From the NCBI RefSeq assembly GCF_022045235.1, contig NW_027266319.1, forward strand, positions 42,532,001-42,596,000: a stretch of 64,000 bases of DNA. Direction: 5' to 3'. Below the pieces are notes generated by a model. That model was not told where the DNA came from. It was given only the letters and a program-made list of their open reading frames with translations, and searched no databases. Both the position numbers and the translations under genes were made by a program. Within the stretch, counting starts at the first letter, position 1. The number at the start of each line of letters is the position of its first letter. The stretch comes from Haliotis cracherodii (Eukaryota). Below, piece by piece: positions 15,657 through 41,219 of this stretch.

Positions 15657-15741
15657 GAAATTAAATACAACTTAACACCAAACAGACCACGCATCCACAG
15701 CCGCTCTGTGTCCCAGTCATCCACGGATAGCTACAGCTCAG
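15657..15741 (+). CDS. AHCYL1: IRBIT/AHCYL exon encoding the first half of the serine-rich phospho-region (EIKYNLTPNRPRIHSRSVSQSSTDSYSS)
   Basis: Acceptor tttctttttcag|G, donor CAG|GTGAGC (phase 0 to phase 1). SRSVSQSSTDSYSS closely matches the vertebrate IRBIT motif SRSISQSSTDSYSS. Confidence 0.93.
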
Positions 15742-17053
15742 GTGAGCAGCTAGTTTAATACATGTACCATGCTCAGGTGAGCAGCTAGTTTAATACATGT
15801 ACCATGCTCAGGTGAGCAGCTAGTTTAATACATGTACCATGCTCAGGTGAGCAGCTAGTTTAATACATGTACCATGCTCAGGTGAGCAGCTAGTTTGATA
15901 CATGTACCATGCTCAGGTGAGCAGCTAGTTTAATACATGTACCATGCTCAGGTGAGCAGCTAGTTTGATACATGTACCATGCTCAGGTGAGCAGCTAGTT
16001 TGATACATGTACCATGCTCAGGTGAGCAGCTAGTTTAATACATGTACCATGCTCAGGTGAGCAGCTAGTTTGATACATGTACCATGCTCAGGTGAGCAGC
16101 TAGTTTAATACATGTACCATGCTCAGGTGAGCAGCTAGTTTAATACATGTACCATGCTCAGGTGAGCAGCTAGTTTGATACATGTACCATGCTCAGGTGA
16201 GCAGCTAGTTTAATACATGTACCATGCTCAGGTGAGCAGCTAGTTTAACACATGTACCATGCTCAGGTGAGCAGCTAGTTTGATACATGTACCATGCTCA
16301 GGTGAGCAGCTAGTTTAATACATGTACCATGCTCAGGTGAGCAGCTAGTTTAATACATGTACCATGCTCAGGTGAGCAGCTAGTTTGATACATGTACCAT
16401 GCTCAGGTGAGCAGCTAGTTTAATACATGTACCATGCTCAGGTGAGCAGCTAGTTTGATACATGTACCATGCTCAGGTGAGCAGCTAGTTTGATACATGT
16501 ACCATGCTCAGGTGAGCAGCTAGTTTAATACATGTACCATGCTCAGGTGAGCAGCTAGTTTAATACATGTACCATGCTCAGGTGAGCAGCTAGTTTAATA
16601 CATGTACCATGCTCAGGTGAGCAGCTAGTTTAATACATGTACCATGCTCAGGTGAGCAGCTAGTTTTATACATGTACCATGCTCAGGTGAGCAGCTAGTC
16701 TAATACATGTACCATGCTCAGGTGAGCTGCTGGTCTAATACATGTACCATGCTCAGGTGAGCAGCTAGTCTAATACATGTACCATGCTCAGGTGAGCAGC
16801 TAGTCTAATACATGTACCATGCTCAGGTGAGCAGCTAGTCTTATACATGTACCATGCTCAGGTGAGCAGCTAGTCTTATACATGTGCCATGCTCAGGTGA
16901 TCAGGTAGTCTAATACATGTACCATGCTCAGGTGAGCAGCTAGTCTAATACATGTACCATGCTCAGGTTAGCAGCTAGTCTAATACATGTACCATGCTCA
17001 GGTGAGCAGCTAGTCTAATAAATGTACCATGCTCAGGTGAGCAGCTAGTCTAA
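15736..17053 (+). repeat. 35-bp minisatellite (gctcaggtgagcagctagtttaatacatgtaccat), 38 starts, whose first unit spans the exon donor
   Basis: gctcag at 15736, 15771 ... 17031, an exact 35-bp period. Confidence 0.97.
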
Positions 17054-17194
17054 CACATATAGACACACAGAATGGTGGATGCTCGAAAAGCATGGGGAAT
17101 AAAGTCAGGGGCCAGGATTTAATCGGCTTAGTGATGTTAAAGAATTGGTATAAAAGAGATGGTATTGGAGACATTTTTAGCTTAAAATCGGAGA

Positions 17195-18728
17195 TACCAT
17201 ATTCGGCGTAATACACTCCCCATTCTTATAAGCACCTATGGTGATATTTACTAATATATTGACAAGTGAACAATCCCAACAATCTCAATAAGTGCCACTT
17301 CTGATTGATCACAGAACATAGTTATTTGTGTATACTAATGCACTCATTTGTTATACGCATCTCTAATTATGGGCAATTAAATTCTGGAAAAATATATCTC
17401 ATATGTATAATATGCACAGACTTTAGTATCATTTCAGGTTGTCAGTATATGACTGTCATGATCCGCTATATAAAAAGAATAGAATATCAGCAAATTCATA
17501 TTGAATCATGCAAGTTAACCCTTTTGTTACACTATTTAAGTGTTCATTGTATATCTGGACTTACATTTGTAATCTATTATCTTAATTTTAATAAAAAAAT
17601 CATTCAATAATGTTTACATAATAATTTTGGTGAAATAGTGTCCCTACGATACTTACAACTTCACACGGTTCCTTAAAGCTCGCTTTACCACATACCAACT
17701 CCTATTTACTAATGCAACAATGATCTTATTTTCTTCTGTTTCATTTTTTAATGAATCTACACATTAAGATAAAAATGTGTCACAGTCAACTTTCAATGAG
17801 AAAATATCTCAAAACGTGAAAAACGATTTCCAATTACGTAGTCTTCATTTGTTTACATCACATGCTGTCATCGAAGGCATAGGGAGAGGTAGCGATATGA
17901 TCACTTTGATGCATAAATATATTTTGTCGTGCACCTTACAGTCGCAGTTTTAGTGGCAAATAATTGTGCAAAACAATATGTAAAGCATCAGTCTGTTCTG
18001 ATTTCAAAGTTGTTTAAAAACAAGAGAAAAGTCCAGTCATGTCACATGGAAATTAGCGTGTGGCAGTGGTGTTATGCAAAGTTATGTTACTTATGAAGCT
18101 AGATGTACTTTAAGGATAATTGCATACATTGTCTTTGGAATTAATCTCAGGTAGGGATGTGTAGTATTTTCATATCTAAATTGTTGAACTCGTGACCTGT
18201 CATGAACAGCACAATAGCCGACATAACAACAAACATGTTTTGACAAAAACTATTCAAGTTAATTTTACAAATCGGTAGCTAAAACAAAGAAGTAGTAATA
18301 AACATTAAATATATCCTCATTATAACCGAAAAATAAAGGTAAGTAATATAAGGTAATATTTGAAAATCATGAAAACACAAAGCAGCTGTCTATTTTAAAT
18401 TTCAACTTTTCCTGCAGATTACCGGTACTTCCTGTTTGGAATGATGGTCGTCGACCTTTATTTTTACTCATCGTTGATGTCGAGTTGCATTATCACAAAT
18501 ACATAGATATGTAAATTGATATGTGCAAGCATTCATGTAGTATTATTTGTAAGAGACATCTATATCTAAAGGGATAAAATGCTGAGAGCGATCATTTTCT
18601 GTGTTCGCCAAACCACAAAATTTACAATCTTTCAATTCTGTAAAAAGAAATTACCCAAATTATATTCTAATAAGCAACCCCTATTTCTAATTTTGAGAGC
18701 GCCCTGGATGCTTATTATGTTGAATACA
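17195..18728. mobile_element. Possible old pogo/Tc1-type non-autonomous DNA transposon
   Basis: Degenerate termini taccatattcggcgtaata..ataagcacc / gcgccctggatgcttattatgttgaatac; internal segment ~17480-17585 resembles ~37629-37728. Confidence 0.35.
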
Positions 18729-19437
18729 TTAACTTATACTAAGCATTGATAGACAGTGAACATGTGGGTATATTTAATGAATACTAGTGCAAGGGAGGTA
18801 ACTCCAGCAATTGTAAGACCATATATAACAGATTCAGAAAGACGACTGTTTTTGAAATATTTAGTGGTGTTTCTAATAAAATCTGTTACTGTGTAATTAG
18901 ATTATGGAGAGATCAATTACTAAGATTCAACAGTAGTCAATTGGTGAAATGCACACAATGCCAGGCATATGCATGCATCAAGTCAGTCAGTGATCAAAGG
19001 GATGTAACTCTTGAAGTTTTATCGGTGTTACTTGTCAGAACACGCTGACAGACACAATATTTATTTGATTGGGATTTCTTACCCTGAGTGATATATGCAT
19101 ATGGATTTTAGAAGTGAAAGCCTGCATGTGTACAGTGTGTTGTGCCATGGACGTGCGGTGTATATATATGTGAGTATACACACCAATGTTTATTTCCAGG
19201 GAATTCTCTTGTCACTTTCAGCGCTACATCAACAATTGACATGTTTTAGGTTTACGATTACTTTGTAGTTACTATTATTGCCTTTCATTACTTTTCATTA
19301 CTTTTCATAGCTATTATTATGAATTTGATTACATAATGAAAGCTTTTTAAGAACGCATGAAGTATGGCTGGTGATGTCAGTGGGGTGTTGTATGTGGTGT
19401 TGATGTGGGTGAGCCAGTAGTGCACTTGTTGTTCCAG

Positions 19438-19506
19438 GAGGGCGGGGCGGCGGAGGGCGAGGAGGGCGTGGGGGGCAACTCGAGCCCATCACTGACTCTG
19501 ATTCAG
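19438..19506 (+). CDS. Candidate 69-nt symmetric cassette exon of the IRBIT-like gene (GGRGGGGRGGRGGQLEPITDSDS)
   Basis: Acceptor cacttgttgttccag|, donor CAG|GTTGTA, length 3n, phase 1-1 matching the flanking exons, no stop; GC/CpG-rich island in AT-rich intron. Confidence 0.5.
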
Positions 19507-19749
19507 GTTGTATATGTCTGCTCCCTGCTCCGCCTGTATTCTATCACTACCTACTGTGGTACTTGTAGTTCTGGCTGCTCTGCTCATGTAGTGTCTGTTT
19601 TCTTGAGATGAGCCAATACCCCATATTGTTTGTGTGGTCCAAGCTTACATGCTACTGTTTGCATGGTATTCACATTGTGCTCTACCATGAAACATGGGAA
19701 CAGTTAACCCAAGAAACTTGACATGAGTGTCATGACCATAGTCACACAT

Positions 19750-20385
19750 GACACTTACCCCAGACACATATCACTCACAACACTTGCCCCAGACACGTCA
19801 AACATGGCCCTTGCCCCAGACACATATCACTCACAACACTTGCCCCAGACACATATCACTCACAACACTTGCCCCAGACACGTCAAACATGGCCCTTGCC
19901 CCAGACACATATCACTCACAACACTTGCCCCAGACACGTCAAACATGGCCCTTGCCCCAGACACATATCACACATAACACTTGCCCCAGACACGTCAAAC
20001 ATGGCCCTTGCCCCAGACACATAACACTCATAACACTTGCCCTAGACACGTCAAACATGGCCCTTGCCCCAGACACATTTCACACACAACACTTGCCCCA
20101 GACACGTCAAACATGGCCCTTGCCCCAGACACATATCACACATAACACTTGCCCCAGACACGTCAAACATGGCCCTTGCCCCAGACACATATCACACATA
20201 ACACTTGCCCCAGACACGTCAAACATGGCCCTTGCCACAGAAACATATCACGCATAACACTTGCCCCAGACAATCATCAAACATGACACTTGCCCCAGAC
20301 ATATGTCACACATGACACTTGCCCCAGACGCATGACACACATGACACTTGCCTCAGAAACACGTCACACATGACGCTTGCCCCAA
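19750..20385. repeat. Composite 27+29-bp (56-bp dimer) minisatellite with cttgccccagacac core
   Basis: Alternating cttgccccagacacgtcaaacatggcc and cttgccccagacacatatcactcacaaca units. Confidence 0.9.
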
Positions 20386-20419
20386 ACACTTACAATAATA
20401 TAGAAGCATGGGACCTGAA

Positions 20420-22066
20420 CCCTGACACAACACATGTGAGACAATACCCAGACACATGTGAGAAAATACCCTGACACATGTGAGAAAATACCCTGACACA
20501 TGTGAGACAATACCCAGACACATGTGAGAAAATACCCTGACACATGTGAGACAGTACCCAGACGTGTGAAAAAATACCCTGGGATATGTGAGACAATACC
20601 CAGACACATGTGAGAAAATACCCTGACACATGTGAGAAAATACCCTGACACATGTGAGACAATACCCAGACACATGTGAGAAAATACCCTGACACATGTG
20701 AGACAGTACCCAGACGTGTGAAAAAATACCCTGGGATATGTGAGACAATACCCAGACACATGAGAGAAAATACCCTGACACATGTGAGACAGTACCCAGA
20801 CACATGTGAGAAAATACCCTGACACATGTAAGAAAATACCCTGACACATGTGAGACAGTACCCAGACATGTGAGACAATACCCTGGGATATGTGAGACAA
20901 TACCCAGACACATGAGAGAAAATACCCTGACACATGTGAGACAGTACCCAGACGTGTGAGACAATACCCTGGGATATGTGAGACAATACCCTGACACATG
21001 TGAGACAATACCACGACAGAAAATATACAATACCCAGTGTTCGCGGGAGGTTTTTGTACAGTGCGTGCAGAAATGAAATAATGAATTTTCAATTAAAATA
21101 TTTCGCGTGTGAAGTTTTTATTTCAATAAAATCAGTACAAGTACAGCTAATAATTATGACCAAACTTTAACTTACGGTGCATTTTTGATATAATGAACGT
21201 TCAATCATTAATAAAATATATATGACTGTTGTTAGCACATGCCCATGTGTGGAAGTTTTCTTCTGTCGCTCTGTTTATGATCGTTCATATTACCGACTAT
21301 TACTTGTAAGCTGGCTCTGATTGGATGAATCGAACGACTTCCGGGGAATTCCATCGATAGTAACGAATGACGTCTTGTGTCTGAGATTAGTTATTCCGTT
21401 GCCCAAAGACCATATATGGAAATATAAAGGATGCGATTCAAAGCGCCATCTGAACACATTCTATTTTTAGAAATGGGAATTTCCAGATTTTGATTTATTT
21501 TCGTCTGAACATCGTAAGCAGGCTATCAGCTTTGAACAGTTTTTTTATTTTATGGTATTAATACAAAATTAAGTATATCACAATCTCTGCCTGCAAAGTA
21601 TTTTTTGCGTGTTTATATGATTTTAATGCTTGAAAAACACTGAATACCCTAACACATGCGAGACAATACCCTGACACATGTGAGACAATATGCTGACCCA
21701 TGTGAGACAATACCCAGACACATGTGGGACAATACCCTGACACGATTTAGATAATACCCTGACACATGTGAGACAATACCCGAACACATGTGAGACAATA
21801 CCCTGACACATGTAGGACAATACCCTAACACATATGAGACAATATGCTGACATATGTGAGACAATACCCTGACACATGTGAGACAATACCCGAACACATG
21901 TGGGACAATACCCTAACACATATGAGACAATATGCTGACATATGTGAGACAATACCCTGACACATGTGAGACAATACCCGAACACATGTGAGACAATACC
22001 CGAACACATGTGAGACAATACCCGAACACATGAGAGACAATACCCTAACACATGAGAGACAATATC
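20420..22066. repeat. 22-bp minisatellite (gacacatgtgagacaataccct), split by an insertion at 21035-21642
   Basis: Same unit on both sides of the insertion. Confidence 0.92.
21035..21642. mobile_element. hAT-like non-autonomous element inserted in the 22-bp array
   Basis: Ends cagtgtt / aacactg; aatacc duplicated at 21029-21034 and 21643-21648. Confidence 0.7.
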
Positions 22067-25000
22067 AGTTTTTCTGTCTGTACTCATTTGTTGTTTCTGA
22101 AGCTCTCTTTTTTTTATGCACACAAACACTAATTTTCATACTGTCTACTTTGCACAGAAATCACAAAGCTGCTTCTGTTGTTACTTATATGAGCACACAG
22201 TGTTAAACTGAAGATACAGTAAACCACCACACACAGCTCTTGTTCACTAGTTTTCAGGAATTTGTAGCTTTTGTAGCCAAACGTACAGGCCAGTAGCATT
22301 TTTATCTTTTCCACGTTTTGAAATTACAGCAGATTCACAATAGCTTAACATTTAACAGTCCTTTTTACACATCATTTGTACATTTGGTCATTCATTACAT
22401 GGTACCACTACAACCAGACAAATATCATCCATGACTAATGTACTAAAGGAACTCATATCATGTAACATCTGGTTCGGTCAGCCAAAAGTAGGATATTAGC
22501 AGATTGCTAGTAACCACTTAGCATGTGTAATGTAATGAATCTCACCAAGTGTTATGAGGAATAATGCCCTATATTTTGACAAATATCGAACATGACTGGC
22601 ACATCCATTAGTGACCTGTTGAAACCATCAGTGGTCAAGCTGGCCAGCTCGATCACCAACAGGCCTGGTCAGGACAGTCTGATGGAACAGAAGTACTTGG
22701 TGCTTGGGAAGCACAGACTTAAAAATTACCTTGTTTGTGCATGTTGCATGGGGCTGATTATTTCATGTTTTAGGTGATGTTTGAAAAGCTTTTAATGCAT
22801 TGAAGTTTTTGCTTGTTTTTTTTCTTTCATTTTTCATTGTCTCATATTTATAGTAAAAGTTCAAACTTTTAGTCTTCATTGAGAAAAAGAAGGTATGGTA
22901 AATGCAATAATTCTTGTCCTAATACCTACTAGTTCTCTGTTGTCAGTTCTAGCATACTCAACATTCTGACATTCTGATTCTTTGTATACAGACATGTCCT
23001 GAATCACTGAAATATGAACATGGTGAAGTCATGGAGCATGTGACACTTTGTGGAGGATAGCATGGGTTGTAGCTGAACAGTTTGTGCAAACAGCCATATG
23101 TTTACTTCCAAAGATAGAACAGGTTTCTCATTAGATGCATCATTATGGTATCTACACATATACTACACCATCTTATATTCTACTTAATTTTATTGAGGTT
23201 AAGATATTAATTAGGGCATTTATTAAATAATAAATGACATGATTGTTCTAATCAGAATATGCATGGTTTCACTTGGTGTAGAAAACAACCCAAAGATCTT
23301 TTAATTTTTTTTTTTTTTTAAACAAGACTGAATATTTTGTTTATATGCACCTTTGTGTGATATTTTTATGAAACAATTATCTGAGTGCAGGTGTTCCTTT
23401 TTTTTGATCTTTCCAAAACTGATTTATCATTTGACCATTTTGTCAGAGTGAGTGATCATCTAGTTTTATGTAAATGTGCAAGATGAAAAACGGCCATCCT
23501 GGTGTTGTCAACAACATCTTGGCCTCCTCCCTATCTTGTTTTCCAGTCCATTAGTCAGTGCCGTGATAAGTAATTCTTCCACATAAGCTTTAACAGTTCC
23601 ATTACTTGGCCAACTACTCAATGTCCACAAGACAAGCCCCTATCTCAGTGGTAATTAACAGACTTAGCATTGTTTTAAGTGTATTATGGTGACTAAAGCA
23701 CATGGTCACATTTATGTACGACATTGAATTTTTACAATTACTGACAGTAATGGGAAGCATGGAAAGAGTAGAATTTGAGTACATTTTGGACAGTGTAATG
23801 GGCTCTAGGTGCAGTTCCTTTTTATATTTTGTATGATGAATAACAGATATATTTGAAGTATAGCTAGTTAAGGATTTTCTTTAATAGCTATCATTTTAAG
23901 TAGCCTGCCCCCTCAGAAAAAGGAGCCATAATGCCAGTTGGTTGTACAGTATTTCAAATGTGCATTTACACATATTAGGTTTTGTGTTCTGTTTCACTTT
24001 AAAACTGACTTTCACTTTGTGAGTTCATTGGAGTATGAACCTTCATAGAGTGAGGGCCAAACTGCATGAATGTGGTTTACAGGTCGAAGGATACACAACA
24101 ATTTAATTATGTATATATGTGACTTAATTATTACACTGACAATCATACAACAACCAGCAGTAACACGGAATATGATAGTTCCTCAGAAGGCAAGCAAGGT
24201 AGCATGTGCACTTATCTCACTTTATATATGAAGATACTAGTTTCTTATTGGTAAAGGAGCGGGCAATTATTTACCATGTAGCCAGCTCATGTACCCCTCT
24301 GAGAAATCAATCGAAATACCTGAAGTAGCTTACTTACATCACATAAGTATTGTTGAGCTGAAATGAACCAATGTTTATCCGAAAGCATTGGGTAAAGGGA
24401 AGTAAGTCTGTTCGTTTGCTTCGTCTGCTACCTGACAAAATAGCTGAATCAAAGCATTTTACTCAATGAAACTAAATTGGACATATATTTTGGGTGTGAT
24501 ATACCCTGTATGTGAGCCTATGTACACTTTGCCTGACAGTTTGGGATACATACTATAGGCTCACACACAGGGTACATTGCACCATATACCACCCCTCAAG
24601 ATCGGTTGACAATGTATAATATATGTTCAAATTGCACAACAGCAACATATTTTGTACTTTGGTTACAAGAAATAGATTAGATGAGAATGGTCTCTTATGA
24701 ACTACATGATTAAGTCAGTCACATTTATTATATTCAATCCAGGACGTCAAAATGTCCGACACGATAAACGTGATGAAAGAGATTTCTGAAGTTGTTAACA
24801 TAACTGTGATGTTGGTCATCATTGATCAATTTGCAGATCATTGAAAGGTTATTATGAAGATGTGTCAAATAGATCATGAGGTAAATTTATAGATTGTTGT
24901 AGACTGTCACTGTCAGTATAGGTATTGGTTGAGTCCATAGTATGGATGTGCATTCGTTTAATTCACTTATCCCAATGTATGCTAGAACGCGGAGTTCAAG

Positions 25001-28000
25001 ATTAAAGGTCTAAATGATCGGAATCCATGCTTCTGTATTTATTCATGCAAGGTTTCTCCAGGAATGTGGAAGCAGTCCATCATTTCACGACTACAGTCTC
25101 GTGAAAAATTATGAAGGTCAAAATGTGCCGTTCATACACTTTTGAACATCAGGTTCGTGTTTATGTGACTAACCTTTACTCCAATGGAAAAGCCATGTAT
25201 ATCATGTTAACATGACATTAAAAACTTATCACGCAACAATTTTTGTTGAACTTACTAATTACTCTGATCTGACACAACACATTTGCTCAATACAGTGTCA
25301 ATTGTCAAATCACCAAATCATGTGACCGCAGATGGTTGAACATCAAGACACGTCAGCCGTCCTCTGATTGGCTCATCTCACAGTTATGACTTGTATCGTA
25401 TTGTGTGCTGCTACACTGTAACAATGGTTCTTTCTCTAACTCTGACCACCTCCCCACCCACTAGCAACTGCCTAACCAGCCCCTCCTGGATACCCCAGTG
25501 TCCACAAGGAGTGAAGGCACTGACTCATTTTAACACTGTGAAATGTCTTCAGTCTTCACTTCATTCCAGATACTGATACCAGTGATACCGGTGCTGCAGC
25601 TTCTCTGTTACAATACGATCCTGAGTTTCTGCAATATTTACTGATGTCATAACCAATTGAGTGGACATTTATGACATTCTGTTTTGTTTCTTTTCTGCCA
25701 CTTATATAGATGTTTTGTAACACTGATCCAGGACGAGGTGTTTCTTTATGAATGCTAAGTTACAAATGTGTTTGATGTACTCCCTTATTTAGTACATGAC
25801 TCTGTAAGTCAATACCAAGGAAGATTGGGGAGTGTCATGTGTTTGCATTGTTTATTCCTGAAAAAGTTTCTTTGCTAGGTGAACATATTCCCAAGTATTG
25901 ATCACAGACAAAGTATACCAGGTTGTATATAGTTTGGCTAACCAGCGACGGATGTATTAACTTTTGAAAGACTTCTTATAAAGACATTAGCAAGAGCTGG
26001 ATGTCCTATCAAGGGTGTCAACAAGTGTCAGTGAAAGCTCATTTATTCTATATGTCAAATGGTTTTTGTTTTCATCCGACCGCATGGATAAGTTGATTTA
26101 TCATATAATGGGTGGGTATCTTGGCAGGACAAAGCCAACGGATAAAAATAATATCCGTTTGGGTCATATGCAGATAGAGATGCAAATATCAAAGGTCATG
26201 TAGGCACTACTTTCACTGTTTATAAACAAACATGGCGTCACCCGTGTCATTCGGTGATCGAGACAGAATTAACCATCGGGAATATGGAGAAACTACTGGG
26301 ATAATTGCTATCATTATGAAAAGTATAGTCTAATATACTGAAAACCAGTATCTAACTGTGACGTAGCTAAGGCATTTTACAAGTTTTAGCATCTTTGGAT
26401 ATGTAAATTGCGAAACAATTTAGCGGGGACACTAGCCAAGCGGGATCACTTTCCATATCTGTGCTTGTAGACCTATGCGGCTTGGAACCTTTTCCACAAA
26501 TTAAAACAGCTGGAGTTGGCTGAAATATGTTTGAATTGTTACCTTGTTTCGATTTGTCGCTGTGTGTACATCTGACTGCACACCGTAATGTTATGACAAG
26601 ACAAGCCGACTGTCAACAACGTCTGACTGTGGCCGTGACATATCATAGACTAGGGTTAGAGTAGCTTCCCTTTGATAAAGAGCAGTTACTCTATCGAACA
26701 GACCAATGGATTGGCAAGAAAAAACTTTGTGTAGTCAATTGTTGTTTTGCATATATCTAGTTACGCCACTGTATAAGAAACAGGTTTCTGTTGGAACTAT
26801 ATTGGCTACTGTCACTGTGCGACTGACGTGTCACTTACCCTCTGATGTAATATATATTAATGCACACATTCAAGGAAAAATTACAATGTTTAGGTAATGT
26901 TTGTAAGAGATGGAAAGAGATTTTCGAGCACAGAATTGAAGAATGCCATTATATAATAAAGAGGTTATCAACCGGTTTTCTATGAACACTAATAATCAAC
27001 CGAGTTTGTTCATAGTACTAGTAGGTTAGCGACAGACAACCAGGGTGACAACCAGCTGCCAACAGGGAAACTGGTCACTGGAGATGTGCAGTTCACCTGA
27101 TCAGTGGGAATAATTATCATGACAATTACATCTTATGCTCTCCAATTTTCCAGAATATGTAAGTGCTCCTGATACACATTGTCACATACACAGTGTTTGG
27201 GTAGAACCATCATTGAAAAGGGGAAGTCACTTCGCTGGTGTATATACAGTAACTCTCTCAAACAACTCGCAATAACAAGCATGAATTATTGATCAGTTAA
27301 TCAAAGTTTTTCACTTCCTGTTTCCCGTAATAGAGAGCAGTCTACAGCTCCTGCCTCGGAGTGAGGAATACATCCTTCCGGGACAGCCCATCAGCTGGGC
27401 ACATCTCCAGCAATCAATGCCCATCTGATTGACAACTGTAGTTGTCCGTGTAGTTATGACAAGCTGCTGTCCCACTGTTACCATGGCCAGCATACTGAAA
27501 TTCCTCAACATGTCAGAAACTGTTACTGTGGGTTAAAAAGTGATCATGCTGCCATAGTCTGTCAATTGGCCTGTGTTGTTTGTGGTTGTGTGGTTTGCAT
27601 TAAAATACATGCTGTCAAGTGATGTGGCAGTCAACTAAAGGTGTTTCTTCATTCATATTTTTATTTTGTGGTGTTCTTTTTCCATTTAAAAAATGTTGAG
27701 TTGGTTACATCACATAAAGTTTACCAGCTGAGTTAAAGGTGACCCTGGACAATGTAAACATGCAGCATGCTGGAATGATGGTATGACTCACCTTGCCTAG
27801 CACCCCAGGTTGCAGGGAGGAGAAAGGGACAGAGGGGGACAGTCCATTTCTTGTGTGTATCAGCTGATGCCCTGTTCCTTCCTCCCTCCCTTCTCTCTCC
27901 GCCTCCTCCTTTCTCTGCTTCCCATACAGCATACTGCTGTATGTAGTGAAGATCCTGGTTTGACTGGCTATCGCAGGACTGCCTATACTCTGTTTCCCAT

Positions 28001-28484
28001 TTCCAGCTGGAGGAATCTCTCTGGCACTCATTGCCTCACTGCCAAGAAATACCTTGCTGCACCATTTCTCCCATCTACTCACCAAACCTGCTCAACCATC
28101 TTGCACTTCCTGTTATTGATCAGAGCTTAAATGTAGTTCACTGCAGTTTAGGGTTTTAATCTGGATTGATTTGGGGAGATTATCCTATTTTTTGTCCTCG
28201 GCATAGTGACTGAAGTGTTTATACCATGTTGGTCCTTTCAGGTCATGTTTATGAGCTCGTATGTGTACTGAAGGTGTAGCTTTTCCAACATGATTCTTGG
28301 CAAATCCAATTTTGGAGGTTCAGGTCAATCATTTTCAGTTTGTCTTGTGGTAACTACTTTCCAATGTTTTAGTCCTGGTACATCCACATCCCTACTCTCC
28401 TTGCTGTACTCTCACCCTACTTGTGGGAATGTTGGCATGTTCTATCTGGAAAACACCAGAGTCATGATGAATGGAATCTTTAGA

Positions 28485-28723
28485 TTGTTTGTTTGTTTGT
28501 TGTTTAACACAGCACTCGGCAATATTACAGCTATATAACGGCGGTGAATAATCAAATCTGATCCAGTGATTGAAATAATGAGCATTGAGCTAGGCAATTG
28601 GGATACAATGACATGCATCAAACGAGTCACTGAGCTGACCACCCAATCCCGTTACAACAAGCATAGTCACCTCTTACGGCAAGCATGGGTTACTGAAGAC
28701 TATTCTAGCCCAGATCTTCACGG
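28485..28723 (-). mobile_element. SINE family D with Nin/Deu-like core
   Basis: Reverse complement ccgtgaagatctgggctagaatagtcttcagtaacccatgcttgccgtaagaggtgact resembles the Deu/Nin core GCTTGTCGTAAGAGGCGACT; (aaac)n tail; related copies at ~50222-50313, 57335-57510 and 63561-63764. Confidence 0.8.
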
Positions 28724-30557
28724 ACCAGAATCTTAAATGATATCATGAAGGTGTCTTTGATCTTTGCGTTTTATTCGAATTAAGGTGAAAAGTTTGTAAT
28801 GGCTTTCTATGATAGAAATGCAGGGTTGGAAATTATTTTTTTATTTTCACTTGCCTGCATGAACATCCGTTACAGAGTTGCCTTCTAACTTATGGTATCA
28901 GTGGTGGTCCACAACAAAATGTCACTAGTCTTTCCTGAATTTTACTAGGCTCAGACTTGTGAACATATGTAATGATAAATTATGATTTATGATCACTCAG
29001 TTTCCCTGTCATTCAATATTTATAATAATTAAGTTAAGTAAATTAGTCCTTTTATAGTAGATTATAAGGACTGTCTTTATTTCACTCGAGTTTTAGTTGA
29101 ACTGACAAGAGAAATAAGTTCAATTTCATTGATGATATTTACTTGATTTAATTAGTGATATTCACTGAATTTTTTTTAATGCTATTCACTCAATTATGGC
29201 ATATAAGTTTGACGTTTAGAAATTGTCTGCATGTCATTTTGGCTCATGTTCAGCTCAACGTACAGCTTATTTTTAAAGGATGCAGTGGTCATAACTTAGT
29301 CTTTGGAAGATGTAAGTATTGTATCAAGAAAAGGTGCACAAACAGTATCCACTGTACTTACTGTAGGTATTTAAATGAAACCCCCCCATCTCTCCACAGT
29401 CCCCATGCTTGTATCAACAGTGACATGGTCAAGCTATCGTTACATGGCGGCGTAGCAGGAGTAAACAAACTCTCTTCAGGCCATACATAATAGATAATGC
29501 ATTAGAACATTGTGGCATCACAGTACAATGACGCAACAAACCATACTAAGGGAACAAGGGAGATTCAACTTAATGGAAAACAGTCTGATAAACTTGTTTT
29601 ATTTATTTTCTAACAGCTTGTCATAATAGTAATTGTTGTAATAATTGTCAGAACGTAAAGCTTGTACATTAGAAAAATTGTAAATTTCACATTTCCAAAT
29701 TTGGCCAAATGCTTACTTAAAGGTACAGTGGGGCTATTGGTCAGATATATTTGTGATCTGTGCAAATTTATGTGTAATTTTAGCTTAAGTTAAATGTCTC
29801 CAAAAAGTATTCTTTACAACCGGAGCATATAATAACATATGCAATGTTTCTTTTGTTGCAATTAAGATTTTCTCTGTCAAAGAAATTAGTATCATTTGCT
29901 ATCTGTATTTAGATTTTAGATGTCAGGCAGCATGAATTGCCACATTTAGATACTCTAGGAACACACTCAGTCAAATTTCGTTGGTTGTCTCAAATGTTTA
30001 GATTGTTTATAACTGCTTATCATCTGACTTTTAGATGGCACTTTTCCCATTTTTGTGCTTTGAGTTACAATGGTTAAGTTACTTTGCGTGATAGACATAG
30101 CACTTTGATGATTAGGATTAAAGGTCGGCCCTAATGTTAAAACATTTTTGTAATCCTTTGGGGTTAGTTTTGGAGCTCTTATGTGACTTATGATCTAACA
30201 TTGCGAGTTTGTGTGTGTATTTGATTGAGTATTTGAATATGAATAGATGTTACTGAACTGATCCTTTGAGCCAGGTGAGCTACAGAAGTGGAGGAGATGA
30301 GCTGTCTGGGACGTGTTGCAGTAGGCTTTACAACCAGCTTTACACTGTACTTTATTGTGCTGAAGATTAATGTTACACAGATAAGAGCAGTCTCCTATCC
30401 TGCATGAATTGCTTTCTTCACTGAAGGAAATGTTTTACCACTCATGAACACTGCATATTTTATCCATACCCAATCTGATATATGTCGAGGGATACTGGAT
30501 CCCAGTACAGGTGATTAGCAACATTGGACTTCATTGTTATTGAAGAAAAGCTAGACT

Positions 30558-30863
30558 CCCTCCGTGGTTTGTGGTATAGCGTCCGCCCGGAGATGAAGAT
30601 TCGTGTTTCGATCGCCAGCCACGTCATACCCAAAGACACTTAAAAAGATGGTACTTGTTGGCGCTCGGCTAACACAAGAACTGGTCGGCTTGGAGTCAGT
30701 ATACTATTTCTAAGTGGGGTATTCCTGTTAAACTGTGGCATATGGTTTCACAGTGGGCTAGCACTATTAAATTGGCATTAGTCTGGGCAAGTACACACGT
30801 GCATGCACGTCGCAGTGCAATAATCTTAAACACAATGTTAAACCCCATTCACCTTACCTCACC
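30558..30863 (+). mobile_element. SINE family B (tRNA head + Meta-like core)
   Basis: Degenerate A/B boxes, then gtcatacccaaagacacttaaaaagatggtac (MetaSINE-type core) and (acctc)n tail. Confidence 0.85.
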
Positions 30864-32236
30864 ATAAGAACACTTTGACCCCAAAAGGCAACTTCCCATG
30901 TTGAGTGATTACATGAAATTAAGCTTTGTTAAGGTAAAGACCACTTCAAAAGAACCTTTGTTTAGGTACCGCAAACTGTCAAGCTTTTTGCTCAGGTTGT
31001 TAGCCTATGATATCATCAGCTGCATATGTTGTCCAATTGTTGATAGTTTGGGATTCCATTGCCTGTAAATATGAGCCAACATTGCTTCCATCAAATGAAG
31101 TTCAAGAGATATCATGTCATAGCAGGTTGCCTGTTGTCTGTCAGTCGTAATCTTTCACATTTTCAACATCTATGTAACCGTAAAGCTTTTTGTATAGCGT
31201 CTCTAAATATTGCTTTCTGAATTCTTATCTGATTTTGAATTTAGACAATCTGGCAGCCATGTTGAATATAACCTTTTTGCCCATTACTGAACCATTTGTG
31301 TATGTAGTGTTGTGAACTGTGATATGCATTGAGTTTGGGGTATGCTTCAGAACATGGTACTTTTTCTTTGTTTTTATGTTGGCACAATGTTCATCTTTGA
31401 CCTTTCACCATTGTTGTTGCTGTGTTGAAATGTTGTCAAAGTGCATATTCCTCTACTCTACAATCACTGAATTATCAATGTGTAATTTAATGTAGTTAGG
31501 ACGTCTGTATATAAAGGTCAGTTTATTTTTTTCTGCTTTTAGTTTACCAAGACCATGTGTTGTGACCTTTTGCGTGTAATGTTGCCAATATTCTGTAAAA
31601 AATTATGTGATCAAGCTCACATGACCTCATGGCTATGTTGTTGTTGAAAATACAGCTTGCTTCCAACCATGTTATGATACTTGTACACATAGAATGAATG
31701 CTTTTTTTTGTTTCATACAAGATAAAAACATGCACAAATAGACAGCGATACCACTACAACTACCATGGGACCCAATTTGCCATCTTTTTCAAGGAGAAAC
31801 AAATTTAATTATTTTATGTTTTGTTCTATAATTGTTTCAGGCAGACAAAAAGCTTGATGTTGTTTGGGTCTGAGAAATGTTTGTAGACGGTTGTGTGTGC
31901 ACTATTGTCGCCATGTAAACTGGTAGCCACCCTCCTGCCAACTATAGACTGTTGTATTTGGATGCCCTGTATGCACCGAGGATTCTGTATGTAGGCTTGT
32001 GAATGGCTTGCCTTGTGGATGGATATGATTACCTTTGAGAAAATATGACAACTGATCAACAGGCAGCAACTTGCATGGCCATAGCAGAAAAGCCAAACTG
32101 GCCATTGTTTTGTAAAGCTGTCAGTCAGTGATCCTCATGAGACCTTGCTTCAGTGATTTCATTGTGTTGATGTCATTGGTCTATTTACACTCCAAGATTC
32201 TAACTGCTGATATACATATTGAAAAGCTGATATTTT

Positions 32237-32299
32237 AGGTGAGGTGAGGTGAAATTTGGTCCAAGATTATTCCACTTATATGGTGATGTGCACATGCAT

Positions 32300-32330
<31 letters not shown>

Positions 32331-32595
32331 GGGGGGGTGCTGCTTGTACTAGTCCAGACTAATGCCAATTTATAGTGCTAGCTCACTGAGATATCATGCC
32401 GCTGTTTAACATGAATACCCCACTCAGACACAGTATACTGAGTCCAAGCCGACCTATCCTTGTTTTAGCCCCATTATGTAGAGCGCCAGACAGGGTAACA
32501 ACAAGTACCATCTTTAAACGTCTTTTGGTATGACACAGCCGGGGATCAAACCTTGGATATTCCACTCTCTGATAAGTCCCACCCCAACAAACCAA
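32237..32595 (-). mobile_element. SINE family B copy with internal poly-G/(GT)n expansion
   Basis: Reverse complement has gtcataccaaaagacgtttaaagatggtac core and (cacct)n tail. Confidence 0.85.
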
Positions 32596-32698
32596 ATGAT
32601 ATTGCTACGAGATTTTTTGTTAACTGTGACCAATTAGGGTGTTGTCAAATATGGTAGCCATTCTGTATTCTGGTACCTCAAGAACCCACAGTGTAGGT

Positions 32699-32740
32699 GC
32701 CCTGCCCTGCCCTGCCCTGCCCTGCCCTGCCCTGCCCTGC
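32699..32740. repeat. (GCCCT)n pentanucleotide microsatellite
   Basis: About 8 perfect copies. Confidence 0.95.
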
Positions 32741-33221
32741 TCCACCCTAAAAACTGTTGTGTGGATTAGGCTAAGCAGAGTAACAGTAGCAGCAACAACA
32801 GATGTGCAAGTAAAGCAGCCAAAAAACACATGTGTGATGTTGACAGAATCAACACTGTTATCCACTCCCATCTCTCATTCAACTCACTTCGAAACGAATT
32901 GTTTGAAAATCGTGTGCCAGCAAATAGCATTCAAGGCAATAGGGATGTATCTTTCTTCTATTTGTTGTTGATATGTTGTGAGTGTGGCCTATTCCTGATG
33001 TAGGATGGTCCACATAGCTAGCAATGAGAGCCTCGACCGGCCCACAACCTTGTCTATGTGAGCCACAGACAGACGACATGTACTCTTCAGACCCGACAGG
33101 GACGCACTTGCAGGCGATGACACACAGTTAACAAAACATGAAATATTTGTTCAATGTGTGTTTATGGCATGTGAAACATGTTGTTTATATGACAGCCAGA
33201 CAAGGCCCTGGTGGCATATAC

Positions 33222-33990
33222 TGACACACTAAGTACTTCACTACATGTGTATGACACACTAAGTACTTCACTACATGTGTATGGCACACTAAATACTTCA
33301 CTACATGTGTATGACACACTAAGTACTTCACTACATGTGTATGACACACTAAGTACTTCACTACATGTGTATGACACACTAAGTACTTCACTACATGTGT
33401 ATGACACACTAAGTACTTCACTACATGTGTATGACACACTAAGTACTTCACTACATGTGTATGACACACTAAATACTTCACTACATGTGTATGACACACT
33501 AAATACTTCACTACATGTGTATGACACACTAAGTACTTCACTACATGTGTATGACACACTTAATACTTCACTACATGTGTATGACACACTTAATACTTCA
33601 CTACATGTGTATGACACTCTAAGTACTTCACTACATGTGTATGACACACTAAGTACTTCACCACATGTGTATGACACACTAAGTACTTCACTACATGTGT
33701 ATGACACACTAAGTACCTCACTACATGTGTATGACACACTAAGTACTTCACTACATGTGTATGACACACTAAGTACTTCACTACATGTGTATGACACACT
33801 AAGTACTTCACTACATGTGTATGACACACTAAGTACCTCACTACATGTGTATGACACACTAAGCACTTCACTACATGTGTATGACACACTAAGTACTTCA
33901 CTACATGTGTATGACACACTAAGTACCTCACTACATGTGTATGACACACTAGGTACCTAATTACATATATATGACAAACTAGGTACCTCA
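33222..33990. repeat. 30-bp minisatellite (tgacacactaagtacttcactacatgtgta), ~25 copies
   Basis: Exact 30-bp period; source of the SVSYTCSEVL-type ORFs. Confidence 0.97.
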
Positions 33991-34002
33991 TTACATATAT
34001 AT

Positions 34003-35188
34003 GTCATGTACAGATAGTCAGCCTACTATAACAGTACAGTAATATCTCTATCACGACCACTGTGTCATGTACAGATAGTCAGCCTACTATAACAGTACAG
34101 CAATATCTCTATCACGACCACTGTGTCATGTACAGATAGTCAGCCTACTATAACAGTACAGCAATATCTCTCTCACGACCACTGTGTCATGTACAGATAG
34201 TCAGCCTACTATAACGGTACAGTAATATCTCTATCACGACCACTGTGTCATGTACAGATAGTCAGCCTACTATAACAATACAGTACTATCTCTCTCACGA
34301 CCACTGTGTCATGTACAGATAGTCAGCCTACTATAACAGTACAGTAATATCTCTATCACGACCACTGTGTCATGTACAGATAGTCAGCCTACTATAACAA
34401 TACAGTACTATCTCTCTCACGACCACTGTGTCATGTACAGATAGTCAGCCTACTATAACAGTACAGTAATATCTCTATCACGACCACTGTGTCATGTACA
34501 GATAGTCAGCCTACTATCACGGTACAGTAATATCTCTCTCACGACCACTGTGTCATGTACAGATAGTGAGCCTACTATAACGGTACAGTACTATCTCTCT
34601 CACACCCCTGTGTCATGTACAGATAGTCAGCCTACTATCACGGTACAGTAATATCTCTATCACGACCACTGTGTCATGTACAGATAGTCTGCCTACTATA
34701 ACAATACAGTACTATCTCTCTCACGACCACTGTGTCATGTACAGATAGTCAGCCTACTATAACAGTACAGTAATATCTCTATCACGACCACTGTGTCATG
34801 TACAGATAGTCAGCCTACTATAACAATACAGTACTATCTCTCTCACGACCACTGTGTCATGTACAGATAGTCAGCCTACTATAACAGTACAGTAATATCT
34901 CTATCACGACCACTGTGTCATGTACAGATAGTCAGCCTACTATCACGGTACAGTAATATCTCTCTCACGACCACTGTGTCATGTACAGATAGTGAGCCTA
35001 CTATAACGGTACAGTACTATCTCTCTCACACCCCTGTGTCATGTACAGATAGTCAGCCTACTATCACGGTACAGTAATATCTCTCTCACGACCACTGTGT
35101 CATGTGCAGATAGTCAGCCTACTATAACAATACAGTAATATCTCTCTCACGACCACTGTGTCATGTACAGATAGTCAGCCTACTATAA
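34003..35188. repeat. 61-bp minisatellite, ~19 copies, directly abutting the 30-bp array
   Basis: Unit gtcatgtacagatagtcagcctactataacagtacagtaatatctctatcacgaccactgt. Confidence 0.97.
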
Positions 35189-35636
35189 TGAGTTAGTTCG
35201 GTAATGGCCAATATGGTACTTCTTGTTATTGCTGATACAATAAGGAATTGATCATGGTCACTCTGATGGTATTGTCTGGATTAACAGACACTCATGCAGT
35301 CAAACTGCATGATGTGTCATTCTTAAAACATTAACCACTTAATGAAAGGTGAGCTGCAGTACTTGGGCCCTGTATTGTGAAATAGTTTGAATACTTCATA
35401 TACATATGTTTTCCTGAGCCTGGAGAAACTATTTCAAATATTGATAGAATGTATTGCCGCAAAGACTAGATTGTGCTGTAAAGTAGGAAGATATGTATTA
35501 TAAAAACATGTCTTGAGCTTGGACAGTGCTCCTTGATAAGCCTACAGAATTCATGCTGGCCTGCAGCTCGAAAGGACCCAATATAAATCCAATGATTGCA
35601 GTTGTCATTTACTAAGTACATTTCAGAATTAGATTT

Positions 35637-37570
35637 CTGTAGAGATACTGCATCTTTGACCTGTATCTACCCCATAAATGCAGCAACTTTGACCTGTGTC
35701 TACCACAAATCTGTAGAGATGTTGCATCTTTGACCTGTATCTACCACACAAATGTGACATCTTTGTCCTTTATCTACCACATAAATGTGGCATCTTTGAC
35801 CTGTATCTACCACATAAATGTTGCATCTTTGACCTGTATCTACCCAATAAATGCAGCAACTTTGATCTGTATCTACCACAAATATGTAGAGATGTTGCAT
35901 CTTTGACCTGTATCTACAACACAAATGTGACATCTTTGTCCTTTATCTACCACTTAAATGTGGCATCTTTGACCTGTATCTACCACATAAATGTTGCATC
36001 TTTGACCTGTATCTACCCCTTAAATGCAGCATCTTTGACCTGTATCTACCCCATAAATGCAGCAACTTTGACCTGTGTCTACCACAAATATGTAGAGATG
36101 TTGCATCTTTGACCTGTATCTACCACACAAATGTGACATCTTTGTCCTTTATCTACCACATAAATGTGGCATCTTTGACCTGTATCTACCACATAAATGT
36201 TGCATCTTTGACCTGTATCTACCCAATAAATGCAGCAACTTTGATCTGTATCTACCACAAATATGTAGAGATGTTGCATCTTTGACCTGTATCTACAACA
36301 CAAATGTGACATCTTTGTCCTTTATCTACCACTTAAATGTGGCATCTTTGACCTGTATCTACCACATAAATGTTGCATCTTTGACCTGTATCTACCCCAT
36401 AAATGCAGCAACTTTGACCTGTATCTACCACAAATATGTAGAGATGTTGCATCTTTGACCTGTATCTACAACACAAATGTGACATCTTTGTCCTTTATCT
36501 ACCACTTAAATGTGGCATCTTTGACCTGTATCTACCACATAAATGTTGCATCTTTGACCTGTATCTACCACATAAATGCAGCAACTTTGACCTGTATCTA
36601 CCACATGAATTTAGAGATGTGGCATCTTTGACCTGTATCTACCCCATAAATGCAGCAACTTTGACCTGTGTCTACCACAAATATGTAGAGATGTTGCATC
36701 TTTGACCTGTATCTACCACACAAATGTGACATTTTTGTCCTTTATCTACCACATAAATGTGGCATCTATGACCTGTATCTACCACATGAATGTAGCATCA
36801 CTGACCTGTATCTACCCCATAAATGCAGCAACTTTGACCTGTATCTACCACATGAATGGAGAGATGTTGCATCTTTGATCTGTATCTACCACACAAATGT
36901 GACATCTTTGTCCTTTATCTACCACATAAATGTGGCATCTTTGACCTGTATCTACCACATAAATGCAGCATCTTTGACCTGTATCTACCCCATAAATGCA
37001 GCAACTTTGACCTGTATCTACCACAAATATGTAGAGATGTTGCACTTTTGACCTGTATCTACCACATAAATGTGACATCTTTGTCCTTTATCTACCACTT
37101 AAATTTGGCATCGTTGACCTGTATCTACCACATAAATGTTGCATCTTTGACCTGTATCTACCGCATAAATGCAGCAACTTTGACCTGTGTCTACCACATG
37201 AATGGAGAGATGTGGCATCTTTGACCTGTATCTACCCCATAAATGCAGCAACTTTGACCTGTATCTACCTCATGAATGTAGCATCTTTGACCTATATCTA
37301 CCACATAAATGCAGCAACTTTGACCTGTGTCTACCTCATGAATGTAGCATCTTTGACCTGTATCTACCAGATGAATGGAGAGATGTGGCGTCTTTGACCT
37401 GTATCTACCACATAAATGCAGTAACATTGACCTGTATCCACCACATAAATGTTGCATCTTTGACCTATATCTACCACATAAATGCAGCAACTTTGACCTG
37501 TGTCTACCTCATGAATGTAGCATCTTTGACCTGTATCTACCACAAATATGTAGAGATGTTGCATTTTTGA
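35637..37570. repeat. Composite ~36/43-bp minisatellite with higher-order blocks
   Basis: Core gcatctttgacctgtatctaccacataaatg; near-identical blocks recur 379 bp apart (ORFs 35700-35933 and 36079-36312). Confidence 0.93.
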
Positions 37571-38332
37571 CACACAACCCAACTGAAAGATGCTACAGTG
37601 AGCATGTAACACCAGAAGTAGCATGTCTACAAATCCTTACTGAATTACACAAGTTAATCCTGTTATTACAATATATGATAATAAAACATATTCGTTGTAT
37701 ATCTGGACTTAAGGTTGTAATCTACTTAAGCAGTTTTATTCAAAGTTTCATTCAGTATTGTTTACATATAAGTTGGCAAAATTGTTAACTGATCAGTAGA
37801 TCGCATCATCTCCCCGTTATTTACAGTAACGACAGTCAGATGACAGCTATTGACAGCTTGAAACAAACCTTAGTTGTCAGAGAATGGATACATATATCAT
37901 TAATGCCATACTTTGAATCACTGAAAATCATATTATTGTTGTTTGACTACGTATCATTGTTTTCTAGATCAATATATCAAAACCGCGGAAAGCCTCAAAT
38001 GGTGACTTGTCACACTGTTTCATATGTAAAAGATATACGACAAATGTGCCAAAGTGCTACACTTCTGGTTATTGATATTGTAACTATATATAGTAAAAGA
38101 TGCAAATAAGATAACATTAGGTTATAATATATTATAAAAAAGTAGTTTCAGATACGTTTCCTTCTGATCACTCCATCATAATTCTTTTAAGTTATATTAT
38201 TTGGCATATTTAAGCTGAATCAATGCTTAGATCCGGGAGGAAAAGTGTGTATTTCTGGCCTAGTTTATGAGAGAAGTACACATGGCAATCCCTGCATATA
38301 AAACAATGTCTAGCAGAACAGGAAATACAATT

Positions 38333-38557
38333 GATTCGCTGTGCAGAGTTGCGTCCCTTGGGCCCCACCAGCAACCTATGATTGTGGGTTCGAAGCCCGG
38401 TTTACCCCAATTATGTTTATGTTTGTCAGCACCATGCCCGTGCTCGTGGGTTTCAGACCAGCATCACTTGGTGCTTTCCTCCCACATTAAGCTGACACAC
38501 TGTGATCTTACTGGAATACTGGTTAAAAGCGGCGTTAAACCCAACTCACTCACTCAC
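38333..38557 (+). mobile_element. SINE family A copy with a small internal deletion
   Basis: gattcgctgtgcagagttgcgtcccttgggc head, ggttcgaagcc B-box, shared (actc)n tail. Confidence 0.9.
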
Positions 38558-40633
38558 ATTTTCATTGACCAGTTTTGTTATTATCTGTTCGTTCCCCCAG
38601 ACATATATGATGTAATTTTTCACTGTGCACAATACACAAAATAGCAGTTTTCCTGAAACTTATACCCAAGAATAGGGGATGTAGTCTGAAATATACTCAA
38701 ATGTGCACTATGCATATGAAAATCTGTATGTATATATTGTAACTTGATGTACCAGTATAGTGAATAATTTGGAATTAATCTAATCTTGTTTCAAAGATCC
38801 AAATATTCAGGTGCATACAGATCTTAATGGCTCCTTCTCTTTTTCATAATTGATTTGTCATTGACATAAGTTGTATTTGAAGTTCTCTGGCTTGTGAACC
38901 AGTAGGATGTGGCAGTTACTGGTTTGTGCACAGATCAAGCCCTGGATCTTCTTAATAAAAGTCCAGTTTCCACCCTTGCCGAATTATTGAATTCTATTTT
39001 GGCTTGACTTATAAGTCTATGCATAGGCAAATCAAAATCACATAACGAAATCGGCATCTGCTTCGTAACCTGCCATGCAGATTTAGGTCAATTGCAGGAT
39101 TTGCAAAGCATGTGTACAGACAACTCAGGATCAAGAGATATTTTCAAAATGTTTTCATTTTTTTAATCATGGTGTTGATGTGAATTGATGCGAAGTAAGA
39201 CCCATTTTATCACAATAATGATTTTGATTATTGATGAGATGGTCTTGACTGGGCGCTGTCATTTTGTTTGAAGCAAATGCAAGTGATACGAGAGGTGAAA
39301 CATAGGAGGAATATTTCTCATAATAACCGCTGGTGTCGCTACAGGCGAACCCCAAAATCCTAGCCTTGCTCGGGATGGGTTGGAAAATGGACTTTTACAG
39401 TCAGTTAACTCCCTTACCTCAGGAAGATGCATTAGTTGGAGTGTGTCTGGGCTCTCCGTGACATAAAGGTACAGGAATTGTGTAGCCAGGGTGAGGCTGC
39501 AACAAGGGAAGCAGGTAATCTCACACACGTCTGCTGCAAGTCAACCATCTCACCACACATCTCTGTTACATTGGTGGGAGATTGAAATAGGCTATAGCTG
39601 GTGGTTATGACAGTGTACATTCTGTGCCTATCAAACATGGGTATTGTGGGTGCTGCCCTTTTCAACATGCTGCTTAGGCTTTGATCAGGTGTGGTATAAT
39701 AATGATTACATGGAATATGTTTGCGCACTGAATTATTGATTTTGCCATATTTTTTACTTTTTGAGAAGTTTATTTTTGTGCCTGGTTGTTTGTGTTAGGG
39801 GATAGTTTATTAATAGAAGTGGCTTTGAGAGTAGGTCTCAAGTTATTGATTGAATGCAAAGATTGATGAAATTGGTGTAGACTCGTAAACTAATAAATTC
39901 ACAGTTTGGTGTACTGGGCAGGCTTGCTGATTGGCTGTCAGACATGTATCCAAGGCTGACTGTTTGCTTGTATTAATCATGTGTATTATATGATGAAAGG
40001 CTGGCAAATCCTTACAGGTTAAAAAGGCCGAGACTAATCCTACAATTCTATTGTGATCAAACATAACCGTCCCTGCCAATTTGAGAGCTTGGTTTTTTTC
40101 CCCCTGTGTGTGAATGGACTGTTCCATGGCTGTGTGAGATCCACTATAGACGGATGGGAGAGATCCTGCTTTGTGGAGTGCAGGTTGTTATCTATTGCTA
40201 TAGGAAGTCAGTCAGGGAGTTGAAGCAAGCTTACAACCATAACACAGGTCGTGGCCAACCCAAGTCAGCTGGCATCTGAAAGGCAGTGTGTGTTCAGTGA
40301 GTGGGAGAAGACGGGGAGTATAGTGCTAGCCAAGGTGCCCTCTGATTCCTCCATGCAGTAGCGTGCCTCACTCTGCTGCTGCTGCTGAAGGATTAACTCA
40401 ATTGATTGGAGATTTGTTATTGTCTGACACTGTGTGAGGTGTGAGAGGAAGGGGACGAGTGTCATGGTAAGACAAGTGGCAGTGTCGTAGTCGCCTCTCC
40501 ACCCATACTACGGACCTACCCACTGCCTGTGTTCACCTGTCTGGGCCGTCACTGGGAGTTCTGAGGCAGACTACTGTACAAGCTGTACATTGCATCCCAA
40601 CCGGACAGATCTACATTGTAAATACACACAAAT

Positions 40634-40877
40634 ATGTCGGAGATACTAGCAAAGAAGTTCCTTAGCTTCAAGACTAACTCGAGTGAGAACTTTGACAAGT
40701 TTCATGAAGGTGAGAAGATGCAGAACATGGTGGATGAAGAGGGTGAGGACGCATACCGTGCGCGTGCTGGACGTAAACGTCACAGCGTCCAGCTGGACAA
40801 GCGCCTCACCCAGCAGCTGATGGCCCTTCAGGACAGAAGGTCCAGCACAACCAGCACTGGCACACTCGATTCTCTCT
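40634..40877 (+). CDS. AHCYL1: Alternative first coding exon of the IRBIT-like gene (81 aa, MSEILAKKF...RRSSTTSTGTLDSL), joining exon 60083 in phase 1
   Basis: Clear coding composition; ATG start; consensus GTAAGT donor after 244 nt (phase 1); T+CA gives ..DSL-SSYTGSSSDEEDISPREKPQ in frame. Confidence 0.75.
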
Positions 40878-41219
40878 GTAAGTCACACGCTAACCACCTC
40901 ACTCTGGGACCACTGTCGTAGTATATGTTATCATGCTGCACATATTGCTGTTTATCCATGTGCAAATCAGTGAGCATCACAAATTCTTGTATTTGTTGAA
41001 TTCATTATTGATATTTCATTGAACCATCACTCATAGACTAGGAATAATTCCCAGTAGATGAATATGAGTAATGAAAACTGATATTACTACATAATTCAGC
41101 AATATTTGCTGTTGCATGTGATAATGATGGCTCATGCAGGTGCCTTGCATTCAATTTTATGACTTGTGGTAATCCTATGAATTGAATTATCATCTGTTGA
41201 TTTGTCTTCATAGCTCCAT

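Follow-up and report, generated by a model that had tools for sequence, protein, structure and literature searches.

A splice-donor minisatellite at the serine-rich exon of an AHCYL1/IRBIT-like gene in Haliotis cracherodii

What becomes of an exon whose splice donor is followed by 37 further copies of itself? The window analysed here, a stretch of 64,000 nucleotides from the genome of Haliotis cracherodii, raises this question at the end of a short coding exon, where a tandem array of donors extends into the intron. A preliminary description of the window had proposed that the array might remove itself by recursive splicing, or that it might act as a copy-number-dependent NMD rheostat for only those isoforms that carry the full phospho-motif. 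The features of the array are as follows.

15736..17058, plus strand: 35-bp minisatellite (TRF and phasing; the unit 19-mer is unique to it in the genome).
15742..15747, plus strand: authentic donor CAG|GTGAGC, the one used (contigs of runs X1, X3 and X18 exit at 15741 and resume at the exon starting at 60083).
15756..15758, plus strand: in-frame TAA in unit 1, included if any downstream donor is used (translation).
15777..17042, plus strand: 37 decoy donors, one every 35 nt (35 exact, two variants), each behind a weak CAG acceptor with YTNAY at -19.

TRF reported a period of 35, 37.8 copies, 97% matches and zero indels. Phased on the donor, the array consists of 37 full units and a partial 38th, of 11 types, each unit being made of the last 6 bases of the exon and the first 29 of the intron, and the decoy donors match the real one base for base from -6 to +29. 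CAG|GT stands at 38 of 38 positions: CAG|GTGAGC at 36, CAG|GTGATC at one (16897) and CAG|GTTAGC at one (16967). TRF and phasing thus confirmed the unit, the donor motif and the 37 near-identical decoys of the preliminary description. Its warning that any downstream donor would bring in a premature stop is also correct, as read-through from the exon translates to SSGEQLV and then the TAA of unit 1. The branch-point-like TTAAT that it had placed about 19 nt upstream of the AG, with CTAAT in distal copies, was seen as well: a YTNAY pentamer lies at -19 in all 37 full units, with no AG ahead of the final CAG, and reads mostly TTAAT in proximal units, TTGAT in nine, and CTAAT or CTTAT in the last ten full ones. 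Unit position 14 is T in proximal units and C in the last ten full units and the partial one, as in the 3' flank, so that the array is polarised. Exact matching of a unit 19-mer against the 1.18-Gb genome gave 35 occurrences, every one inside this array, which indicates that the repeat was born at this locus. A transposon origin of the unit was rejected on the same exact matches. Folding of 150 nt of RNA gave -39.4 kcal/mol, a single value computed without a control.

The exons and the intron around the array are the following.

15657..15741, plus strand: shared coding exon of 85 nt for the serine-rich region's first half (P0022, from Biomphalaria, agrees at 27 of 28 residues, and P0035 is similar; both ends are contig splice junctions).
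15742..60082, plus strand: intron of 44,341 nt, in which the array at the 5' end is accompanied by numerous further minisatellites and by an alternative first exon (contig junction).
40634..40877, plus strand: alternative coding first exon with donor TCT|GTAAGT (aligned with the P0025 N-terminus over 76 aa, 74% identical, E 2e-35; its junction was not observed in RNA).
60083..60140, plus strand: exon that follows, carrying the serine-rich region's second half (contig junction, translation).

Judged from its sequence, the host gene is AHCYL1/IRBIT-like. Its serine-rich region precedes an AdoHcyase-like domain on the same strand, which is the N-terminal-to-domain order of the AHCYL1/IRBIT family, and the best named full-length relatives are AHCYL1-like. 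Taken by itself, the exon at 15657-15741 gave no Pfam match. In P0022 and P0035 (the latter being Gigantopelta AHCYL1 isoform X1), the sequence of the 60083 exon directly continues that of 15657-15741, and the motif was present in 3 of 50 long proteins. AdoHcyase exons (PF05221) lie just past the window on the same strand (C56:42597170-42645674), and 14 further exons were mapped downstream by alignment. In mammals, IRBIT's serine-rich region is phosphorylated and governs partner binding, according to the portion of that work cited here (PMC4624786). A possible 69-nt in-frame cassette exon at 19438-19506, 2.4 kb past the array, is Gly-Arg-rich, its acceptor being of consensus type and its donor weak; it would interrupt the serine-rich region, is absent from the three motif-carrying relatives and did not appear in RNA. 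Within the upstream intron, broken transposase-like reading frames were noticed by eye at 7900-9200.

Alternative 5' coding exons of the gene number at least four: three lead into the serine-rich exon and one skips it. The three were joined to 15657 in contigs; they precede the window by 9.1, 34.5 and 48.8 kb (C56:42522869, 42497459 and 42483194), with GT after each. The fourth is the exon at 40634-40877, and an isoform starting there would, from the sequence, bypass both the exon at 15657-15741 and the array donor; an isoform bypassing the serine-rich exon is conserved in molluscs. Since this first exon avoids the array, the earlier contention that any effect would be limited to isoforms carrying the exon at 15657-15741 stands.

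Which donor is used was examined in sequence runs. Of 23 listed, four (X1, X3, X18 and X19) were compared with 15545-15776, and none of the four was labelled with the species of the window. Runs X1, X3 and X18 come from organism A and from three studies, and were presumed to be RNA, spliced junctions being present in them; X19 comes from organism B. In all three runs with spliced contigs, the exon exits at 15741 and continues at the 60083 exon 44 kb away, and in X3 this junction lies inside a single contig of 3,417 nt. The exon at 15657-15741 and its first donor are therefore real. Contigs give the presence of a junction and not its share, and a recursive route would end in the same final junction. 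A contig joining the exon to unit 1, which both +35n products and recursive intermediates require, was found in none of X1, X3 and X18, and this is not evidence of absence, as contigs reveal neither splicing intermediates nor products degraded by NMD. Unspliced contigs on the acceptor side were retained in X1 (depth 4.6) and X18 (depth 2.8). The X19 contig is unspliced and runs from the intron through the exon into unit 1, and tandem units are seen in short contigs of X1, X3 and X19, with the repeat collapsed, so that the copy number in organism A is not given by them. The presence of tandem units in organisms A and B indicates that the array is common to related organisms rather than peculiar to this assembly, and hence that it has persisted. 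An assembler could collapse or expand the 16 identical units, and the copy number is that of the assembly; an array that is over-expanded or non-existent is nevertheless barely conceivable, given the eleven distinct unit types with polarised variants, the tandem units in contigs of three independent runs from both organisms, and the intron-exon-unit contig of X19.

In recursive self-removal, splicing would run from the first GT to a later AG of the array, regenerate the donor, and take the array out step by step. The arrangement invites this reading: YAG|GT stands in every unit, and an array AG, if used, would regenerate the donor exactly, as the preliminary description had it. A ratchet point, in the part of PMC8605326 relied on here, is a conserved pairing of acceptor and donor that lies in a long intron and is accompanied by a short RS-exon which is skipped; the host intron is long at 44.3 kb, and a unit with the donor behind it looks like a short RS-exon. 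Distal exonic recursive sites backed by lariats may moreover be weak, with MaxEnt scores of -2.62 to 11.61 in the values taken from PMC10156609. Among units, the acceptor's 12 positions carry 1 of 11 distinct substitutions against 3.8 expected (P 0.07), and the YTNAY pentamer carries 4 of 11, all four consensus-preserving (p about 0.03, for a feature picked post hoc in units that are not independent). The donor's 9 positions carry 2 of 11 against 2.8 expected (P 0.43) and show no sign of sparing by mutation.

The acceptors themselves argue against recursion. Real sites for comparison came from exons of AHCYL1, AHCY and three further genes of the same genome, placed by protein alignment, with 15656 the only one confirmed by RNA. 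With a weight matrix over -20 to -3, built on this small training set and applied to real sites by leave-one-out, array units scored -3.6 to -0.5 (consensus -2.3) against -0.7 to 9.5 for 24 real acceptors. The consensus unit is weaker than all 24, and one variant (-0.5) narrowly exceeds the weakest of them (-0.7). Within the intron, 513 of 1,351 YAGs (38%) at 17100-59000 of the window score at or above the consensus unit. T occupies -5 in 24 of 26 real acceptors and -6 in 22 of 26, where the unit has C and G, and from -12 to -4 the unit has 3 T against 4-8 in the 26 real sites, in agreement with the weak polypyrimidine tract already remarked upon. On the side of recursion, YTNAY at -19 without an AG before the final CAG, found in 37 of 37 units, is shared by 12% of the YAGs in the intron and by 8 of the 26 real sites. 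The juxtaposition, for its part, has a simple source: the exon ends in CAG, so that copying the exon end yields AG|GT in every unit automatically, and 8 of 26 donors end in YAG regardless.

Position and spacing point the same way. All array sites lie within the first 1.3 kb of the intron and would probably not subdivide it, and their use would shorten it by at most 3%. Behind each array AG a donor of equal strength follows at 35 nt, a step far under the usual short-intron range, for which a human threshold of 65 nt is given in the section cited (PMC4463651). As far as PMC8605326 was drawn upon, a regenerated donor can also be suppressed by prior splicing, so that a first step into the array could favour the next decoy and thereby inclusion of the next unit with its stop. 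Recursion is also unnecessary, as direct use of the first donor already removes the array. We therefore do not retain recursive self-removal and consider it very improbable.

The array belongs instead to a known class, the junction-spanning minisatellites, which comprises those of human F7, 6-16, CBS, lamin B2 and PDGF and the amphioxus 'mirages', and every testable feature of the class was found here: a tandem unit of tens of bases, a terminal unit lying over the real boundary, a reiterated splice signal, and an authentic site that gives the normal mRNA (its junction being present in all three spliced runs of organism A). Neither the arrangement nor the first-donor rule is new, descriptions of both going back to the 1990s-2000s. 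In the account of the 37-bp VNTR of F7 intron 7 used here, sequential mutation of donors showed that the most upstream working donor alone is used, and 50 further clones from the minigenes gave no other product (PMC1557585). That VNTR resembles the present array in its near-equal period, in a first unit lying across the exon-intron boundary (4 exon and 33 intron bases, here 6 and 29), in the identical pseudo-donors behind and in use of the first donor. It differs in having 5-9 units and a UGG|GU donor without AG|GT, against 38 CAG|GT sites, a 44-kb intron and an invertebrate host here, and its donor choice was tested by mutation, whereas ours is known from contigs of a related organism. The same source, as far as cited, describes one or two extra donors in use both at human 6-16 (25 pseudo-sites) and at CBS intron 13 (15-20 units), and the authentic donor only at the lamin B2 and PDGF minisatellites (PMC1557585); in all four, as here, the donor is repeated many times into the intron. 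Amphioxus mirages (Adh3 and the globins BflGb6 and BflGb9) are described as leaving splicing undisturbed (PMC3087553); they are from another phylum and have allele length polymorphism, shown in the part of the study cited, while here a single assembly was at hand. With ratchet points, as portrayed in the parts of PMC8605326 and PMC10156609 cited, the array shares the juxtaposed AG|GT, a nearby downstream donor and a long host intron, but their motifs are highly conserved and constitutively recognised where tested, whereas here the acceptor is weak, the tandem repeat young and the position at the 5' end of the intron. The YAG|GT juxtaposition was found and an acceptor of working strength was not, and for this reason the array was not classed as a ratchet point.

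Very probably, then, this is a local minisatellite over the exon-intron boundary, of which the first donor is used and the 37 copies are likely ignored, drifting in number without function. A short duplication across the exon end would have grown by slippage or unequal exchange, as the polarised variants suggest. The spliceosome would define the 85-nt exon and commit to the most upstream donor, as in human F7, and the 44-kb intron would then be removed with the array included. Rare use of donor 2 or 3 would bring in the stop of unit 1, and if such products are cleared by NMD, the array would be tolerated. Counting against this reading are the YTNAY geometry kept by every full unit, the persistence of the array in organisms A and B, the one or two pseudo-donors used at human 6-16 and CBS, and the origin of the contigs in another organism.

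A more active role for that same leak was weighed against this, in which donors 2, 3 and later ones add 35n bases and a stop, lowering only the isoforms with the full serine-rich region in a copy-number-dependent manner. The decoys have the same sequence as the real donor from -6 to +29, and RNA that takes in the stop of unit 1, with 14 or more exons still to follow, would be open to NMD; 6-16 and CBS draw on one or two pseudo-donors, the exon-bypassing isoform is conserved in molluscs, and the serine-rich region controls IRBIT binding in mammals. A small NMD-bound leak through decoy donors is possible. Known leaks, however, use the nearest pseudo-sites, so that copies past the third should add little, and the F7 minigenes, in the experiments cited above, used the most upstream working donor only. 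The arrangement is moreover shared by unrelated genes such as those of DCAF13, PI4K and an OTUD7B-like protein, which suggests tolerance rather than tuning. We regard regulation by copy number as unlikely.

That the minisatellite over this boundary is not unusual was apparent from the rest of the genome. Twenty evenly spaced 10-kb stretches (200 kb, three contigs) held 28 arrays covering 13% of their sequence, 8 of the 28 with at least 30 copies, and the window itself holds 18 arrays making up 26% of it; an array of this size is routine in this genome. A CATGT core common to minisatellites was sought and occurred in 5 of 28 against 2.5 in shuffles, which is not significant (37 of 500 shuffles reached 5). 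Triple CAGGTRAG gave 8,627 matches against 2,072 for the reversed pattern, and triple RAGGTRAG 15,585 against 7,168. Enrichment specific to donors was rejected as an explanation of the excess over reversed patterns, an acceptor-like pattern being equally enriched: triple TGTTNCAG, the commonest acceptor form in this genome, gave 32,562 matches against 9,556 reversed.

Donor-motif arrays were sampled from the first 100 matches of each pattern, which reduce to 14 and 11 loci in the first part of contig C1 and are not a random sample. All 25 loci were inspected; the upstream frame was scanned in 17, the 8 with a short or no open frame being left out, and the sample detects coding exons, so that non-coding ones would be missed. 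In six of the 25, the array begins at a coding exon's donor and the exon is firmly matched to a family; in a seventh the match is weak.

L030, contig C1, at the donor of a coding exon: Asp/Asn hydroxylase domain, 18 x 21 bp.
L032, contig C1, at the donor of a coding exon: PI3/PI4 kinase, 19 x 49 bp.
L035, contig C1, at the donor of a coding exon: sialin-like, 22 x 31 bp.
L071, G000:C1:285231-289870, minus strand, donor at locus position 4217: DCAF13 exon (E 1.9e-18), at least 192 x 22 bp.
L075, contig C1, at the donor of a coding exon: OTUD7B-like, 64 x 35 bp.
L077, contig C1, at the donor of a coding exon: TSP1 domain, 45 x 37 bp.
L073, contig C1, possible seventh donor array of a coding exon: weak ZP-N match, below the cut-off.

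Copies number 18-89 in L030, L032, L035, L075, L077 and L073. The array of L071, the largest donor ladder among those sampled, extends beyond the stretch examined. In an unselected set formed by AHCYL1 and AHCY, none of the 25 other donors and one of the 23 acceptors is spanned by an array.

Roughly extrapolated, about 2,900 motif arrays at 24-28% would give, counting AG|GTRAG donors alone, 700-800 donor-spanning arrays (about 270 to 1,400), and the genome probably holds hundreds. If an intron number of the order of 200,000 is assumed, with 27% of donors (7 of 26) being of this type and a target of 30 nt, uniform birth of arrays would be expected to yield about 120-390. By this rough arithmetic the class would stand at chance or a few-fold above it.

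A single such locus has little significance, and the value of the arrangement lies in its scale across the genome. Donor-spanning arrays here reach at least 190 identical donors, with units of 21 to 49 bp, and the genome offers a natural panel for how the spliceosome chooses among donors of the same sequence, a mammalian minigene being the main setting in which this rule has been tested so far. Were an NMD leak tuned by copy number, these arrays would amount to molluscan splicing QTLs. The most far-reaching version, in which the units are working cassettes of branch point and AG|GT, copy number sets through recursion or decoy slippage the share of full serine-rich IRBIT that is spared NMD, and arrays by the hundred behave alike across the genome, seems to us very improbable.

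Other arrays near splice sites were met along the way. The array of L027, starting at about 1990-2004 (oriented), has a T-rich tract and then CAG and GTGAG adjoining in its first unit, with no upstream coding exon detected, and is a better ratchet-point look-alike than the array at 15736-17058. In the AHCY gene (L043:298-441, C2, minus strand), 4.5 copies of a 32-bp unit lie across a real acceptor, each unit being a good acceptor followed by GT. Finally, the arrays of L039-L040 (39049-40316 of the 60 kb that follow the window) and of L042:5083-5684 end 12 bases before an acceptor or begin 12 after a donor, the site itself lying outside them.
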